From NCBI GenBank assembly GCA_963758525.1, contig CAVWVQ010000003.1, positions 3,840,001 to 3,904,000 of the forward strand: a DNA stretch of 64,000 nt, given 5' to 3'. Shown piece by piece: positions 19,503 to 38,647 of this stretch. The position numbers and the translations under genes were made by a program. The notes beneath the pieces are model-generated. The model saw only the letters and a list, made by a program, of their open reading frames with translations. It was not told the DNA's origin and made no database searches. Position 1 is the stretch's first letter, and every line of letters begins with the position of its first letter. This DNA is from an uncultured Phycisphaerales bacterium. Its GTDB lineage: Bacteria; Planctomycetota; Phycisphaerae; Tepidisphaerales; Tepidisphaeraceae.

Positions 19503-20546
19503 TCAGTTAATCCCCAGCCCGCCCTCTGTGTTCGTGGGATTGAACATGTCTCCTTCGTTCGGCTGCATCATGCTGTCATTTGGATTCGCCAGAACCCAGG
19601 GGTTGGGCGTCTGGGCGGCAGTTGTCCACTTATTGGCCAGACCAGTGGTGCCCGAACCGAGACAGGTCGTGTAGATGTTGTCCTGGTTGTAGCCTGCGAA
19701 GGCCGTGGGCGACCACTCGCAATGACCGTCGGCGAACAAAACGTTCTGCCCTTTCTTGTTGTGGTTTCTGCTGTTGGCCATCATCTGCAGTTGGGGGCCA
19801 TCGGTGGGTGTCGACGGTCCATTGGATCCATATAAGCCGCTGTGGGAGACACAGCAGCAGTCGGAGTACTTTTCGCCGGGATTCAGGTCCGCCATGATTG
19901 CGAAGCCGGGATTTGCCGCGATGCCCCATCGGTAACCAATCTTCCAGGCGGTGGTCGGAGGGAATGGAAGTGAAACGCTGTAGCTGAGATTGTAGACGGA
20001 GCTGAAGTTGGATCGATGCTGCGGATCCGTGGATGCGCCGGCAACCCCGAAGGTGTTGCTGAAGTCATCGGGATACATGTCATAGCGACCCGGGCAGATG
20101 AAAAGGGCCGACGGAAGCTGATAGGTCCGAAGCAGCAGAAAGAGACACCCCGTTACGTCATTGTCGCCCGGGCGCTTGGCAACCTGCCAGGGAGGGAGCA
20201 CGTCATCGGCAAAGAGATTGGTCGCATTGGCAAATGGACTGTTGGCAATCGGATCAGAGAAACCGCGCAGCCCGGCCCAGGTGTCGGGATGGGGGGGACT
20301 GCTGGCGTAGAAAAGATCCGGGAAATAGACCCCGCGCGGGAACGAGCCCTTGTTGTCGTTGGCGTACATGACCATCGCCTGGCCCAGCTGCCGCAGGTTG
20401 CTCATGCAGGCCACCCGCCGAGCGTCGAACCTGGCCCCGGCCAGCGCCGGCAACAGCAGCGCAATCAGCAGCGCGATGATACCGATCACTACCAAAAGCT
20501 CGACCAGCGTAAATCCAGCACGCCGTTGTCCGGTTCTCGCAGACAT
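19503..20546 (-). CDS. Prepilin-type DUF1559 / H-X9-DG protein (copy A)
   Basis: [59 protein letters not shown]. Confidence 0.93.
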
Positions 20547-31473: not shown

Positions 31474-34211
31474 ATGTCCAAGTACACCGCGCGAAAGCGT
31501 GAGGGTTTCATCTCTGAAGGGGCTTCTTGTCAACGGCGAGACGGCTTGATTGCTAAGTTCCGTTCATTGCTCTCTCCGATCAGCTTCGCGCACTCCCCCT
31601 GCGCCCTTGGCGGGGAGGCTAACGAGGCGGGGGTTTGGGGGCAGAGCCCCCAAGTCTTTGTCGTTCTCGGCGGAACCGTGGCTGCCATCCGGCACCGCGC
31701 GGGCGGCGCGATGCGGCGGTTGAATTCATCTCTACGCGGTCATCGGACGGACGGGTCGCAATGCCAGGCCGTGTGTTCCGAGCCGAATAAAACCTTGTTC
31801 GCGTCAACCGGGCCGAATTCACACTGTCGCAGTCACCAGCAGAACCCGAATCCGACGCCAGTGGCGTCCGATTCGAACCAATGCCTGCCGGGCCGAATGA
31901 AGCCGAGTCGCGGTCTCCAGATTGACGAGACATCGTCTTGCATGGCTGCAAGAACTATTGATGTCATAAGCGTTCCGCCGAGCCGCTGGTCATGCCAGGA
32001 TCATCTCCTCTTCTTGTTTGACAGGTTGTTGCTTAGCAGATTGTTGCTTGAGCCGGGCCTTGTTGGCCGCCCGCTCGTGTCCGGTGGGCTCCTGGCCCTG
32101 GTAGGCCGTCCCGTCGCGGACCATGGCAAAGAGGACACGCAGCAGGCGTCTTCCCATCGCGACGTTCGCCTTGGGCTTGACCATGTGTCCGATCAGCCGC
32201 TGGCGGATCGCCTCCTGCTTCGCGTCGGAGCGGCAGAGGGTGACCGCGGCCTTGCACAACGCCCAGCGCAGCGTGGCGCTGCCCGCCTTGGTGATGTGAC
32301 CCGACTGGGTCCGGCCGGCCGACTCCTGGTTGTCGGGAGTCAATCCCGCCCAGAACTCGAGGGTGTCGGCGTTGGGAAAACGGGAGAACTCGCCGATCTC
32401 CGCGGCGATGATGCACGCCCAGATCTCGTCGATTCCCGGCACGCTCTTGAGAATCGCAATCAGGGAGGCGAATCGCCGGTCGCGGTTGGCAAAAATGATT
32501 TTCCTGCGCAGGCAGTCCCGCTGTCGCTCGATCAGGCAGACCAGGTCCAGGAAGTTGCCGAAGGCTTCGCGCTGCACGTCCTTGAGCAGATCGCCATTGG
32601 CCAGCAGCCATTTCTGGGCGCCGACGCCGTCCAGCTTGGGACCGCCAATGTTGGCGGCCAGGAGCATCGACCGCATGGCGTGCTTGGCGCGGGTGAGGGT
32701 GCGGGACAAATGCCGCCAGTGCCGGCCGAGCTTGCGGAGCTGCATCACTGCTTCGGGGGCGATCCATCCCAGCGGGCACTCCCCGCGGGAGAGGCGCTGG
32801 GCGATGTCGGCCGCGTCCTTGCGATCGGTCTTGCGCCGCTTACCCCGGAGGTTGGACAACTGCGTCGCGTCGGCGATCTCGATCTTGTCCACGCAGGAGC
32901 GGAAGCGGTCGATGAACCACTCGACAAAGCCGACGGCTTCCACTGCCAGGCGGCTGGGACGCGGCAACGCCAGCATCCATTTTTCGATGCGGTCAACGCA
33001 CTTGGTGTCACAGGTCAGCGCGGCGATCTGCGTCCCCGAAGCATCGACAGCACACAGCGAGACGGTACACTTATGCAAATCCACGCCGACGAACGCGGCG
33101 TACGAAACAGGCACATCAGACATAACAAACTCCGTGTTAGGGACCAAGGGAACTTAGAACACTCCCGGAAGCGTAACGGCTTCCGCAGGCCCCTTCACGG
33201 TTTTACGTTGGTGGAGCTTCTGGTGGTGATTGGCATCATCGCGGTGCTGATCGCGCTGCTCCTGCCGGCGCTGGCAGGCGCGAGTTCGAGGCGCGCCGGG
33301 TGGCCTGCATGAGCAACATGCGGCAGCTCGGCCAGTCGATGATCATGTACGCGAACGACAATAAGGGGTCGTTTCCGCGCGGGGTCTATTACCCGGATCT
33401 TTTCTACAGAAGCTCACCACCCTTGCCCGACACTTGGGCAGGGCTGCGCGGCTTCTCTGATCCGATTGCCAACAGTCCATTTGCCAATGCGACCAATCTC
33501 CTTGCCGATGACGTGCTCCCGCCCTGGCAGGTTGCCAAGCGCCCCGGCGACAATGACGTAACGGGCTGCCTTTTTCTCCTGCTTCGGACGTATCAGCTTC
33601 CCTCGGCCCTTTTTGTCTGTCCCGGACGCTACGACATGTATCCCGACGACTTCAGCAATACCTTCGGCGTCGCGGGGGCATCGACGGATCCGCAGCATCG
33701 ATCTAACTTCAGCTCCGTATACAATCTCAGTTACAGCATCTCCCTCCCATTCCCTCCTTCCTCCGCCTGGCGGCTGGGGTATCGCTGGGGTATTGCGGCA
33801 AATCCCGGTTTTGCCATCCTGGCCGACCTCAACCCGGGTGAAAAATACTCCGACTGCTGCTGCGTATCGCACAGCGGTTTGTATCTCAGCAACGGGCCGT
33901 CCACACCCACCGACGGCCCGCAACTTCAGAGGATGGCCAACAGCAGAAACCATAACAAAAAAGGCCAGAACGTTTTGTTCGCCGACGGACACTGCGAGTG
34001 GGCGCCCACCGCGTTCGCGGGCTACAACCAGGACAACATTTACACAACGTGCCTCGCCTCGGGTACCACTGGCCTGGCCAATCAATGGACAACCGCCGCC
34101 CAGACGCCCAATCCATGGGCTCTGGCGAACCCGAATGACAGCATGATGCAACCGAACGAAGGCGATATGTTCGATCCCACGAATACCAATGGCGGCCTGG
34201 GGATCAACTGA
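31474..34211 (+). CDS. Prepilin-type DUF1559 protein (copy B), interrupted by IS110 at the G-F codons; extra 1-nt shift near 33284
   Basis: GGAGG RBS and MSKYTARKREGF at 31474-31509; [12 protein letters not shown] resumes at 33205; body differs from copy A at about 22 of 302 aa by eye. Confidence 0.88.
31524..31989 (-). ncRNA. Putative bridge/seek RNA region of the IS (ends not defined)
   Basis: Non-coding end downstream of the recombinase with hairpins and four guide-like segments at 31725-31733, 31788-31797, 31818-31826 and 31898-31904. Confidence 0.65.
31990..33123 (-). CDS. IS110-family DEDD transposase/recombinase
   Basis: VGVDLHK, AVEA, KTDRKDA (D-E-D-D); SVPGI...AEIGEFSRF...AGLTP..QESAG...ITKAGSATLR. 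Confidence 0.95.
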   Translation of the reverse strand: MSDVPVSYAAFVGVDLHKCTVSLCAVDASGTQIAALTCDTKCVDRIEKWMLALPRPSRLAVEAVGFVEWFIDRFRSCVDKIEIADATQLSNLRGKRRKTDRKDAADIAQRLSRGECPLGWIAPEAVMQLRKLGRHWRHLSRTLTRAKHAMRSMLLAANIGGPKLDGVGAQKWLLANGDLLKDVQREAFGNFLDLVCLIERQRDCLRRKIIFANRDRRFASLIAILKSVPGIDEIWACIIAAEIGEFSRFPNADTLEFWAGLTPDNQESAGRTQSGHITKAGSATLRWALCKAAVTLCRSDAKQEAIRQRLIGHMVKPKANVAMGRRLLRVLFAMVRDGTAYQGQEPTGHERAANKARLKQQSAKQQPVKQEEEMILA

Positions 34212-35270: not shown

Positions 35271-35588
35271 GTGAACGTCATCAGCCGAAAGAAGCTCAAG
35301 GAGTTCTACGAGGCAAAACCGGAACGAAAGAAGCACGCCGGCGCATTTGACGACTGGTTCAAGATCGCTCGCAAGGGTCGCTGGCAGAATTACCAGGACA
35401 CGAAAGCAACCTTCGGCCAAACGGACGTTGTCACTGGCGACACGGGTCGAACCGCCACAATTTTCGACATTGGCGGGAACAAATACCGCGTCGTCGCCCA
35501 CGTCGATTACACACGGCAGACCGTGAAGATCGAAGCGGTGATGGATCACAAGGAATATGACCAGGGTTCGTGGACGAAGCTTTTTTGA
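35271..35588 (+). CDS. higB: Type II toxin, HigB family
   Basis: VISRKKLKEF...IFDIGGNKYRVV...DHKEYD. Confidence 0.9.
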   Translation: MNVISRKKLKEFYEAKPERKKHAGAFDDWFKIARKGRWQNYQDTKATFGQTDVVTGDTGRTATIFDIGGNKYRVVAHVDYTRQTVKIEAVMDHKEYDQGSWTKLF

Positions 35589-35598
35589 GGAGTTGAAG

Positions 35599-36018
35599 AT
35601 GCCCAGGACAAAATTCCGCAAGACTGCACGGATCGGCGACACCTACATGGGACTGGTCCGGCGTTTCCCGTTGAAGACGATCAAAAATGATGACGGGCAT
35701 GAGGAAGCAACGAACATGATTTCGGAGCTGATGGGCCGCGATCTCGACGCTGGGGCCGGGGACTACCTTGATGCATTGCTCGTGCTGGTGAACAAGTACG
35801 AGGATGAGCACCATGCCATCGACGCAACGATGACGCCGCAGCAGGCGCTTCGGTCGTTGATGGAGTCGAATACTCTGAGTCAAGCGGACATCGGCCGGAT
35901 CATCGGCAGCGAATCGGCGGTCTCGATGTTCTTGAAAGGTGATCGCGATCTGTCGAAGCCTCAGATCAAGAAACTCGCGGACCGGTTCAAGGTAGATGCC
36001 TCACTCTTCATCGGGTAA
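35599..36018 (+). CDS. higA: Antitoxin HigA (HTH)
   Basis: YLDALLVLVNKYE, LRSLME..LSQADIGRIIGSESAVSMFLKG.R.LS; follows the toxin; GAGGAG RBS. Confidence 0.9.
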   Translation: MPRTKFRKTARIGDTYMGLVRRFPLKTIKNDDGHEEATNMISELMGRDLDAGAGDYLDALLVLVNKYEDEHHAIDATMTPQQALRSLMESNTLSQADIGRIIGSESAVSMFLKGDRDLSKPQIKKLADRFKVDASLFIG

Positions 36019-36450: not shown

Positions 36451-36975
36451 ATGGCTGATTCAGAGCGCGTTGAAGAATTCATCCGGATCCTGGCGACGCA
36501 CGAGGCGCGGCTGCGGTGTTACGTACTGAGCCTGGTGTCGCAATGGGCGGATGCCGACGAAGTGATGCAGGATGTGAACGTGGTTCTGTGGCAGAAGTTT
36601 GAATTGTTCCAGCCGGACACGAATTTTTTCGCCTGGGCGTGCCAGATCGCGCGGTTCAAGGTGCGGGATTACCGCCGGAAGAAGAGTCGGGAGCGGGTGG
36701 TGTTCAGCGATGAGCTGGTGGACCTGCTGGCGGAAGAAGCGGTGGTGGTGGCGGAACGCGTGAACGATTGCCAGGCGGCGCTGGATGGCTGCCTGGGAAA
36801 GCTGAAGCCGGATCAGCGGAACCTGATTCATCTTCGCTACAACGAGGATGAGTCGATAGACGACATCGCTCAATCGGTGGGTCGAACCGTCGAAGCGGTT
36901 TATAAATCCCTTGGCCGAACGCGGCAGGTATTGCACGACTGCATCAAACGAAAGCTCCAGGCGGCCAGCGCATGA
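36451..36975 (+). CDS. ECF sigma-70 factor
   Basis: DADEVMQDVNVVLWQKF, NFFAWACQIARF, LIHLRY...VYKSLGRTR. Confidence 0.93.
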   Translation: MADSERVEEFIRILATHEARLRCYVLSLVSQWADADEVMQDVNVVLWQKFELFQPDTNFFAWACQIARFKVRDYRRKKSRERVVFSDELVDLLAEEAVVVAERVNDCQAALDGCLGKLKPDQRNLIHLRYNEDESIDDIAQSVGRTVEAVYKSLGRTRQVLHDCIKRKLQAASA

Positions 36976-38647
36976 ACACCTCTGATGAAACATTCGACGA
37001 GCTGCGCGAAGCGCGCGAGCTGATCCACGCGCTGTGTGACGATCACCTGCCGCCGGCCGGTCACGCGCGTCTGGAGGCGTTGATGCTGGAAAGCGCCGAG
37101 GCGCGGACGCTGTATCTGGAAATTCTCCGGCTGCATGCGGCGCTGCACCAGCGCACGGCTCGATTGCAACCCAGCCGCGGCTCGATGAAGCAGACATTGC
37201 CGAAGCCGGCGGGATGAACGATGTGATGATTCTGCCCGCCCTTGGACCCGGCGAACGCGAGACGATCATTCCCTACATCCGCCGGGAGAGTGTCGCGGCA
37301 GCGGAACCGACGCCCGTTTCCGCTGAAGAGTCGCGTCCGCAGGCTGTTGCGCAGGCGCGACGGCCGATGTTCCTGAGGCGTGCGGGGCTCACGTGGCTGG
37401 CTGTCGCGGCGACGATTGTCGTCGCGACGTCGGTGCTGATTGTGCAGATGACTTCCCAGACGCCGGCGGGGGCCACGGTCGCCGGTTCGGCGGACGCGCT
37501 GTTCGATTCGGGCAATCTCGATGCTTCGCGCGGCGCCAGCGTGGCAACGGGAAAGCGCTTCAGCCTCGCGGGCGGTTGCCTGGAACTGAGGTTTGGCGGC
37601 GGCGCGGACGTTGTCATCCAGGGGCCGGCGACATTCTCCGTGACTTCTTCCGTTGCCATGGCTTTGACCAGCGGGCGTCTGAGAGCCACTGCGTCGGGCG
37701 CGGCGCACGGATTTGTCGTCGACACGCCGGGTACACGGGTGACCGATCTGGGGACCGAATTTGGCGTCAACGTCACGTCAGCGGGAGCGACCGAGGTGCA
37801 TGTGTTCCAGGGTCAGGTCTCGGTGACGGAGAATCGGCGCGCCGATGCATCATCACCGCCGCCGCAGAGCCCCACGATTCTTTCGGCGGGACAGGCTGCT
37901 GTGGTCGCGAACGGATCGGTGGCGGTTTCGCCTGGCGGCGCTACGCCCCAGGCATTCGTCGGCAGCTTATCGACGGCTCCCTCGATTGATGTCGTTGATC
38001 TGATCTGCGGGGGCAATGGAACGATGCATCTTCGCAGCGGCGCGATCGATCAGCGAACCGGCGATTCGGGATTGCTCGATCCCGTGATGGGCGCGAGCCG
38101 CGAGAGCCCAAAATACCATCGTGTGCCGAGGCTGCCGGTGATCGACGGGTGCTTTATCCCCCGAGGGCACACGACTGTTGATTCCTCCGGGCACGTGTTC
38201 GATTTCGGAAAAACATCGGGCAGCAGCTTCTACCAGATTCGTGCCGGCGGCACGTTCCCCTGGCCGCGCCAGGTGAGAAGTTCGCCGGCGTCCTGTGGGG
38301 CGTTGATTACACGCAGTCGGGAAACGGCTTTGTCCTGATGCATCCCAATAGCGGAATCACCTTCGATCTGGCGCGGTCCGCCACTTGCACCCGGGGGTGA
38401 GAGTTTCTGCACTCCGTTCGGTTGTCGGCAATGCCTATACGGGTCTTCTGGCGGTCGGCCCGACGCGCGTGCTTGTTCTGGTTGATGGCGTGGCCCGGTT
38501 CGACCAACGAGGCGCTGCGCCCAAGAGAGACCACTCGATATCGACGTGCCGCTGGGTGACTCAGACCACTTTCTAACAATCGCGACAACAGATGGCGGGG
38601 TAGTCGCCCGCGATTGGATGATCCTGGGGAATCCACGTATCGAGTGA
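36972..38647 (+). CDS. FecR-domain anti-sigma factor (two or more frameshifts)
   Basis: ATGA-coupled to the sigma factor; TM; GFVVDTP.TRVTDLGTEFGV; later frames give MHPNSGITFDL and DWMILGNPRIE*. Confidence 0.8.

Follow-up and report, generated by a model that had tools for sequence, protein, structure and literature searches.

Elements of the IS1111 group of the IS110 family of insertion sequences (IS) that carry a bridge or seek RNA, e.g., ISEc11, ISKpn4, ISPa11, and IS4321, share DEDD and Tnp domains, subterminal repeats with a 7-nt left extension, a long 3′ non-coding end, a top-strand guide located 5′ of the bottom-strand guide, and insertion in a fixed position and orientation without target duplication beyond a shared base (PMC11187229, PMC11208160). 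The targets described in these two sources are repetitive extragenic palindromic (REP) sequences, attC, transposon ends, and short motifs. All these structural traits recur in an element residing in a DUF1559-like prepilin gene within a 64,000-nt stretch of a Tepidisphaeraceae genome (contig CAVWVQ010000003.1; hereafter “the window”, coordinates being counted from its first letter). Unlike the elements of these two sources, it is aimed at the codons that specify the cleavage site in a family of host proteins, and its whole length is open as an in-frame antisense open reading frame (ORF). The word “pilin” is absent from the available text of the seekRNA paper and occurs twice in that of the bridge RNA paper, in a reference.

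RNA guidance to conserved codons of a multi-copy family is shared with ISEc21, an IS110-group element aimed at the catalytic-motif codons of IS3-family transposases (PMC11187229). In contrast to the window element, ISEc21 targets another mobile element, its RNA is situated upstream, and neither read-through nor rescue is described in the accessible part of that source. IStrons (10.1101/2023.11.20.567912) are similar in that a transposon is presumed to be phenotypically silent in a gene, the removal being accomplished at the RNA level by a group I intron. For the window element, the Rfam search gave no match at E ≤ 1, neither to a group I intron nor to a guide RNA family; its removal would act on the protein and depend on a host protease. 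Inteins are also inserted in frame at a conserved motif, translated together with the host protein, and later removed. Unlike inteins, the window element features no self-splicing domain and no ligation, its mobility enzyme is encoded on the opposite strand, its read-through peptide is unconserved, and the N-terminal part would be discarded. Location of an IS110-family enzyme at or near surface-structure genes has a precedent in Piv, which reportedly inverts a fixed pilin cassette, and in IS492, which is said to switch by excision; here, by contrast, a multi-copy IS is found, the sequence of which points to a gene expressed while inserted. Finally, SXT/R391 elements in prfC provide the gene they interrupt with a replacement 5′ end. 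Certain relatives of the window element (the restart lineages, see below) parallel them with a ribosome-binding site (RBS), an ATG, and a leader of their own; at the same time, SXT/R391 are large, integrase-based, and confined to one site, and nothing among them corresponds to the full read-through form.

The best explanation of this structure, to which we assign a probability of about two in three, would be that the inserted element is read through as a disposable leader, subsequently removed by the host prepilin peptidase. No report of the element or the mechanism was found in the paper listings and abstract openings searched, or in a term search of the main text of PMC11208160, PMC11187229, and 10.64898/2026.08.14.744561. 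The IS family is a known one, and the proposed rescue of the host gene was not encountered in this literature.

Insertion at the cleavage codons of prepilin genes

The identity of the element is evident from its architecture (Table 1). Both transposase domains exceed the Pfam cut-off (PF01548, E = 1.9e-12; PF02371, E = 9.9e-21), and the protein matches the IS621 and ISCro4 structures. Residues D15, E62, D100, and S268 are invariant in 22 sequences and D103 nearly so; judging by the motif positions of the family, we take them to be the catalytic D-E-D-D tetrad and the Tnp serine. The 9-bp subterminal repeats with a 7-nt left extension agree with those of the IS1111 group (7–17 bp, 7 nt), as do the long right (480 nt) and short left (57 nt) non-coding ends.

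A BLAST search of the genome with the element retrieved four full-length copies (99.7–100% identical), and no transposase matches beyond these were found in the same genome at E ≤ 1e-3. All four are inserted in the same orientation, with the transposase antisense to the host gene, directly after the Phe codon of the prepilin motif (G/A)-F-T-L-(V/I)-E; their in silico removal rebuilds the motif in each case, e.g., RSA↓FTLIEMV (the arrow denotes the cleavage site). The Phe codon TTC preceding the window element is target-derived: among identical copies its third base varies (C or T), and since this difference is confined to the right-end side, the core is a single A. The genome contains 62 PF07963 matches, so four of about 62 such sites are occupied. 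At the window junction, PF07963 is likewise above the cut-off, i.e., a hydrophilic leader ending in Gly or Ala is followed by about 21 hydrophobic residues with Glu5, and PF07596 stays below it (E = 1.8e-4).

Two copies have hit adjacent pseudopilin genes, which overlap each other, in an operon of the PilB/PilC type (gene names are given from reading of the translations). An intact occupied gene, GspH-like, is located at G000:C3:4128.5–4130.6 kb. Both operon genes remain whole ORFs, of 728 and 880 codons, and their orthologues are uninterrupted in genomes G002 and G005. The exact orthologous empty site of the window gene was sought and none was found; the contig sets from four sequencing runs contained pieces of relatives only and showed neither an empty site nor a circle junction, which speaks for neither side, as the element ends and the frameshift (see below) had no coverage. 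In the third occupied gene (L143; G000:C3, about 2,706,420–2,706,500), the leader bears an extra FTLVEPQRCLRRRSKSA stretch ahead of the true cleavage site.

The original prediction, which placed an IS110/IS1111 element at the prepilin cleavage codons, was accurate in all its coordinates (RBS, leader, element, pilin body, and the paralogue at 20516 on the minus strand). It also proposed a check, i.e., collecting homologues and translating their flanks. This was done for 110 loci, retained on the basis of an alignment of 300 residues or more (L030, L032, L033, and L098 were dropped; L098 is frameshifted and measures 1,621). One of the searches supplying them kept the best 80 of 234 confirmed hits, hence the set leans to close relatives. 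Of 27 titled records, 21 are labelled Planctomycetota, and six contigs shorter than 5 kb with other labels may be mis-binned. Matches were present in 2 of 401 genomes of a phylum-wide sample and, at a looser cut-off, in 18 of 401 genomes of a class sample; the plasmid search yielded only distant IS110s (<60% identity, best rows about 30%), and the viral pattern scan a single locus without a transposase match.

The left end was readable in 100 of the 110 loci. It abuts prepilin genes in 93 (a few of these assignments rest on short contig-end matches), the end of another element in three, and other sequence in four; site-specific aim at the cleavage codons is thereby supported. Of 74 target proteins, 53 were scanned, showing DUF1559 in 36, GspH, type II secretion system G, and laminin-G domains in one each, the N-methyl motif only in three, and nothing in 11. 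The suggested specialization on the large DUF1559 family can therefore be retained for the conserved prepilin codons and not for the family as such: DUF1559-only targeting is rejected, given that GspH-like and GspG-like pseudopilins are occupied as well.

Element ends in several relatives rebuild a usable target (left ends of L077, L056, and L089; right ends of L024, L078, L096, and L103), hence elements or their remnants can stack in tandem with the frame kept. Duplicated or leftover left-end pieces of earlier elements are found beside intact ones, upstream of the pilin, at the left end of L124 and in the left flanks of L125 and L126.

A stop-free antisense frame

Overlooked in the original prediction, the pilin frame contains no stop across the whole window element, while the five remaining frames have 7–21 stops apiece. 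This open frame coincides precisely with the transposase register read in antisense; it connects the native start with the pilin body and ends in RRPLHG↓F. All four genome copies are stop-free in this frame, yielding fused open frames of 632, 728, 918, and 889 codons.

A stop-free antisense of a transposase alone is weak evidence. It might represent a mere by-product, i.e., a shadow ORF driven by GC content or an overlapping functional protein, and such frames are not rare: 399 of 2,068 genome windows of 385 codons (19%) are free of TTA, CTA, and TCA, and two of nine control transposases (L132, L158) show no antisense stop. For this reason the non-coding ends are the stronger test, and both ends of the window element were stop-free in just 64 of 20,000 base shuffles. 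Shadowing leaves these ends, as well as the element lengths, unexplained. As for a functional protein, it is rejected: substitutions in the right end are evenly distributed over codon positions 1, 2, and 3 (0.158, 0.160, and 0.160; 21 pairs), showing no selection on the peptide, and the 564-aa antisense peptide matches no Pfam family, the Hint splicing domain of inteins included. The by-product explanation is thus hardly credible; it is the openness of the frame, and not the peptide sequence, that matters.

The same rule is apparent in the relatives. Of the loci with a full-length element (79), 71 combine the absence of stops with a length divisible by three. The elements show 36 distinct lengths, between 1,578 and 1,899. 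After clustering at 90% with the retargeted elements (see below) excluded, 55 of 57 lengths are multiples of three and 51 of 57 elements are stop-free; the respective figures are 36 and 34 of 38 at 85%, and 20 and 18 of 22 at 80%. The argument rests on these total lengths because the gaps in pairwise alignments (33 of 110 being multiples of three, with compensating gaps present) are not informative. In the right end, the pilin frame of 53 representatives contained no stop in 10,163 codons, whereas the two alternative frames had 314 and 260 and shuffled sequences averaged 306.6; this count preceded the location of the ends of L056, L057, and L060, which do have stops. In the transposase genes of 70 pilin-targeting representatives, TCA and CTA occurred four times vs. 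212 expected from fourfold sites, an expectation probably too high for CTA.

Not only the openness of the frame but also its last codons are conserved. Position −1 is Gly in 74 of 75 representatives and Ala in one, and even elements with transposases at 34–37% identity (L115, L128, L129) still end in (P/S)LHG↓FTL. The last 15 codons encode 5.25 Lys and Arg on average, while the two alternative frames give 1.57 and 2.51 and shuffled sequences 2.46; for Asp and Glu the figure is 0.55 vs. 1.15. The basic stretch with Gly before Phe, predicted initially from a single copy, is therefore a conserved feature of these elements. Overall, the selected feature is strongly supported as a real one: to the extent that sequence can demonstrate it, the site and orientation of insertion, the openness of the frame, its preservation by element length, and guide–target covariation are established, and targeting and selection for the open frame are about as well shown as possible.

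Predicted guide RNA and retargeted lineages

A bridge or seek RNA is predicted in the 3′ non-coding end. Its single-sequence fold was uninformative (z = −0.33), and the structure became visible in the alignment only (A3, omitting the first guide and the retargeted L068 and L071), where 14 of 38 predicted pairs display compensatory changes. The RNA would be expressed and bound by the transposase. Its guides fit both target strands, with the top-strand match 5′ of the bottom-strand match, and they covary with the target. Their order, two target halves followed by two donor halves, matches that reported for the IS1111 seekRNA (PMC11187229).

The GGCUUCAU guide covaries with the target codon −1, with 110 matches vs. 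86.4 in shuffled pairings (51 clusters), a value reached in none of 5,000 shuffles, and it matches the third base of the Phe codon in 42 of 54 cases (Fisher p = 9e-5, kinship uncorrected). The first five bases of the CAGUGUGAA guide fit the F-T-L codons in 65–66 of 66 cases when G-T wobble is allowed, and the fit is loose beyond; this guide is altered along with the target in L016, L068, and L071. The donor guide AGAGAUGAA varies in step with the right end of the element in L070, L071, L080, and L100 but not in L081–L083. Against the guide assignment, the donor guide also fails to follow the element end in L092.

Elements that left the prepilin genes offer a natural control. The clade of L068, L071, and L073 is the sister (support 0.999) of the pilin-targeting L056, L057, and L060 and has a similar GC content (0.47–0.51). 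Residing in non-pilin DNA, it has accumulated 4–7 antisense stops in the transposase, compared with none in its pilin-targeting sister. Independently, L016, nested among the read-through elements, has acquired a changed guide and a non-pilin target; it is 1,865 long and its transposase has two antisense stops, so the two retargeted lineages carry 2–7 such stops overall. TCA and CTA remain below expectation in the non-pilin elements (9 vs. 30), as recent descent would give. The transposase genes of nine unrelated IS110s bear 0–4 antisense stops, and not one of these elements stays open through the gene together with its flanks.

The retargeted L016 element (L016:2703-2948, minus strand) is inserted on the opposite strand of another gene, at codons FDRY; this gene resembles those of Rpn/PD-(D/E)XK transposases, a candidate for a switch to another multi-copy family. 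In L068, L070, and L071 of the non-pilin clade, TACAAC is present on both sides of the element, so the core or the boundaries differ from those of the pilin-targeting form.

The Phe codon of uninterrupted prepilin sites in G000 is TTT in 38 cases and TTC in nine, though Phe before Thr is encoded by TTC in 79% of cases genome-wide; all four occupied sites have TTC, as the guide reads. A similar bias (TTT:TTC) was recorded in G064 (110:14), G067 (14:1), and G012 (49:16), where no element of the clade was detected. The TTT excess is only suggestive of host escape or of depletion of TTC sites.

Possible fate of the fused prepilin and its genomic surroundings

In the proposed mechanism, a circular form would assemble a junction promoter (the −35 box would pair with TAAAAC only at the circle junction) driving the expression of the transposase and the bridge RNA. 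The guides would then read the synonymous G/A-F-T-L codons, G-T wobble spanning TTC/TTT and CTN/TTG. Once the element is inserted, the host promoter would transcribe through it and ribosomes would cross it, which would also limit polarity in operons. The signal recognition particle (SRP) would take the hydrophobic helix late, the long leader would remain in the cytoplasm, and the peptidase would cut at HG↓F; the 565-residue leader extension would be cut off, freeing the normal mature protein. Some lineages likely restart translation at an element-borne RBS and ATG just ahead of G↓F. The element would then live almost silently as a parasite of a gene family represented by dozens of members in each genome.

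The release of mature pilin would follow from general rules, i.e., a variable hydrophilic leader, a cut after Gly or Ala, and recognition of the helix by SRP. The leader length is variable, cleavage needs just G/A on the cytoplasmic side, and SRP recognises the hydrophobic helix (PMC10191384, PMC4471445). For a T18-PilA fusion, a cleavage-deficient pilin was used to stop processing (PMC7196804, figure legend); T18/T25 fusions to two mature pilins were functional, and other minor-pilin fusions were not expressed (PMC8727766). The accessible part of PMC3584216 holds nothing on long leaders. Two genes for a PF01478 peptidase are present in the genome.

Several observations weigh against rescue by processing. 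Natural leaders comprise 6–26 aa (PMC4471445), so the 577-residue read-through leader is far beyond the tested range. Hydropathy in a 19-residue window attains at least 1.6 in 39 of 53 read-through peptides, and at least 1.9 in 17; the top windows are located near the N-terminus and could mis-anchor the fusion. The strongest of them are encoded directly beyond the −35 box, where the DNA is rich in T (fraction 0.37), and may be a consequence of the promoter sequence; the maximum in the window element is 1.33. The Gly-Phe codons double as the donor recombination site, so their conservation is no independent proof of selection by the peptidase. Related elements are not independent samples, and the shuffle counts overstate significance. 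In the restart lineages the transposase antisense frame is kept open without being fused, so openness has a second value. Moreover, the product of the window pilin copy would be spoiled anyway by a frameshift, likewise overlooked initially: compared with the paralogue at 20516, the body is one base shorter near 33283–33285, leading to a stop at 33310–33312 after 36 mature residues. The missing base may be either real or an assembly error; the latter is possible because the pilC-like gene of the two-copy operon is also split into two frames (L142:3746-4967; G000:C3, about 4,123.7–4,125.0 kb), and the absence of indels from the four element copies counts against it.

Alternatively, the open frame could serve against polarity only, holding ribosomes on the mRNA for the sake of downstream genes, while the fusion is degraded and the hit gene is lost. 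This is consistent with the unconserved peptide, with the insertions in operons, with restart lineages (L056, L057, L060) in which the frame stays open although a stop and a new ATG are present at either end, and with downstream truncation of several hit genes (L001, L020, L052–L054, L100). More broadly, short, closed target ORFs occur in eight pilin-targeting loci (flagged: L001, L020, L036, L052–L054, L064, L100, and L113; L052–L054 are one insertion or cluster, and some of these loci lie near contig ends). Protection from polarity does not, however, need the basic, acid-poor stretch before the cleavage site, the synonymous exchange of Arg CGG/AGG and Lys at position −5, or the recurrence, ahead of G↓F, of short canonical leaders equipped with an RBS. 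As the sole function it appears unlikely, and it is not mutually exclusive with rescue.

Another possibility is that mature pilin originates in all lineages from re-initiation near the left end, at the in-frame ATG 33073 noticed initially or a similar codon, the upstream fusion being incidental. Six full-length loci deviate by stops or frame (L056, L057, L060, L007, L051, L099), and five of them possess an ATG preceded by a purine-rich stretch between the last stop and G↓F. In L056, L057, and L060 the native leader is followed by a short stub, a stop, an ATG two bases on, the open frame, and finally an RBS with an ATG, so the left end gives a 16-residue leader such as MKHRLNYTRVRKPIHG. A clear RBS and ATG 16–19 codons before G↓F are encountered in L003, L025, L056, L057, L059, L060, L075, L130, and L139; only such restart lineages would produce leaders of canonical shortness (16–19 residues). 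L007 and L051 represent a clade with stops clustered at transposase codons 42–43, shortly upstream of the ATG derived from the His codon, a pattern also seen in L055, L123, L125, L127, and L136. L099, with its one-base shift, may be decaying or mis-assembled. Against restart as the general route, an in-frame ATG within 50 codons is available in just 34 of 75 representatives, CAT is used for His17 at the ordinary rate (24 of 82 relatives vs. 30% of all His codons), ATG 33073 has no clear RBS, and 51 of 57 elements contain no stop to free the ribosomes. Restart in every lineage is therefore quite improbable, and ATG 33073 is rejected as a general start: it is present in frame, is probably not the repair route in the window element, and is probably used in a sister clade.

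The original prediction also held that the element either repairs or switches the gene it hits. Repair is retained as likely, by full read-through from the native start. A phase-variation switch, with the inserted state OFF and precise excision (as in IS492) turning the gene ON, or a Piv-like inversion, has the family precedents and the restored gene after in silico removal (4/4 copies) in its favour. It is disfavoured because selection for the absence of stops would not be expected from an OFF state; the element is, moreover, multi-copy at unrelated pilin genes and not fixed at one locus. Furthermore, for ISEc11 the rejoined target was not detected (PMC11187229). Switching is thus without support here and very improbable.

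Returning to removal by the peptidase, it is on balance probable that a third route of hiding exists beside RNA and protein splicing: an RNA-guided IS lineage (34–100% transposase identity) using its own non-coding strand as a disposable leader erased by a host peptidase, with codons, guide RNA, promoter, and indels all obeying a rule of no stops and multiples of three. Such a lineage would include stop–restart switches and in-frame tandem stacks, and hosts may escape it by a shift of the Phe codon. An RNA-guided element could then colonise coding genes cheaply by leaving removal to a host protease, and prepilin peptidase and SRP would be predicted to accept leaders of 500–650 residues. Annotation will call the occupied genes broken though they may work. 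The natural guide–target pairs with codon wobble, together with two retargeting events, are a source of bridge-RNA rules in the IS1111 group. The element also suggests, indirectly, that members of the large prepilin/DUF1559 families of planctomycetes undergo processing and are maintained by selection.

Table 1. Features of the window element and of the interrupted prepilin gene
Feature	Position	Strand	Basis or remark
Host prepilin RBS GGAGG (31462–31466), ATG (31474), and class III leader MSKYTARKREG-F	31462–31509	+	Sequence reading
IS1111-group IS110 element, 1,695 bp; core a single shared A at 31510/33205	31510–33204	−	Four near-identical copies with different flanks; ends kept in relatives
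Stop-free antisense frame, 565 codons, in transposase register, native start to pilin body	31510–33204	+	Frame count; no Pfam match; flat codon-position substitution rate
Subterminal inverted repeat, right end (TGAAGGGGC)	31515–31523		Sequence
−35 box TTGACA, 17 nt from core	31528–31533	−	TTGACA in 47/63 representatives, TTGACN in 61/63
Weak terminator-like hairpin on read-through strand	31629–31651	+	Not above chance: 1 found vs. shuffle mean 2.5
Predicted bridge/seek RNA, boundaries approximate	31670–31960	−	Alignment A3
Donor guide AGAGAUGAA for right end	31725–31733	−	Match to right end
Donor guide GGUUUUAU for left end and core	31787–31794	−	Match; reads GCUUUUAU in clade with end CGCTTTTA
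Guide CAGUGUGAA for F-T-L codons	31818–31826	−	Match to target
Guide GGCUUCAU for target side with −1 and Phe codons	31897–31904	−	Covariation with target
DEDD recombinase/transposase, 377 aa from ATG 33123 (385 aa from TTG 33147)	31990–33123	−	No TTA, CTA, or TCA codon
In-frame ATG, antisense of His17 CAT	33073–33075	+	No clear RBS in window element
Element-encoded cleavage context RKRNGFRRPLHG↓F	33166–33204	+	Sequence reading
Subterminal inverted repeat, left end (GCCCCTTCA), 7 nt from end	33189–33197		Sequence
Body of host DUF1559-like prepilin, frameshifted near 33283–33285	33205–34211	+	Pfam and paralogue comparison

The surroundings of the interrupted gene contain several other features. 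A short palindromic repeat upstream of it (31250–31325) attracts contigs of unrelated organisms in all four sequencing runs. Pairs of an extracytoplasmic function (ECF) sigma factor and a FecR/laminin-G anti-sigma factor lie on either side, at 28635–30892 (minus strand; identified by Pfam) and 36451–38338 (plus strand; by resemblance only). A large autotransporter-repeat/PEP-CTERM-like gene (21964–28500, minus strand; labelled from its translation) is broken into three ORFs of 646, 614, and 997 aa, and a HigB/HigA-like toxin–antitoxin pair, by resemblance of its translations, is situated at 35271–36018 (plus strand).

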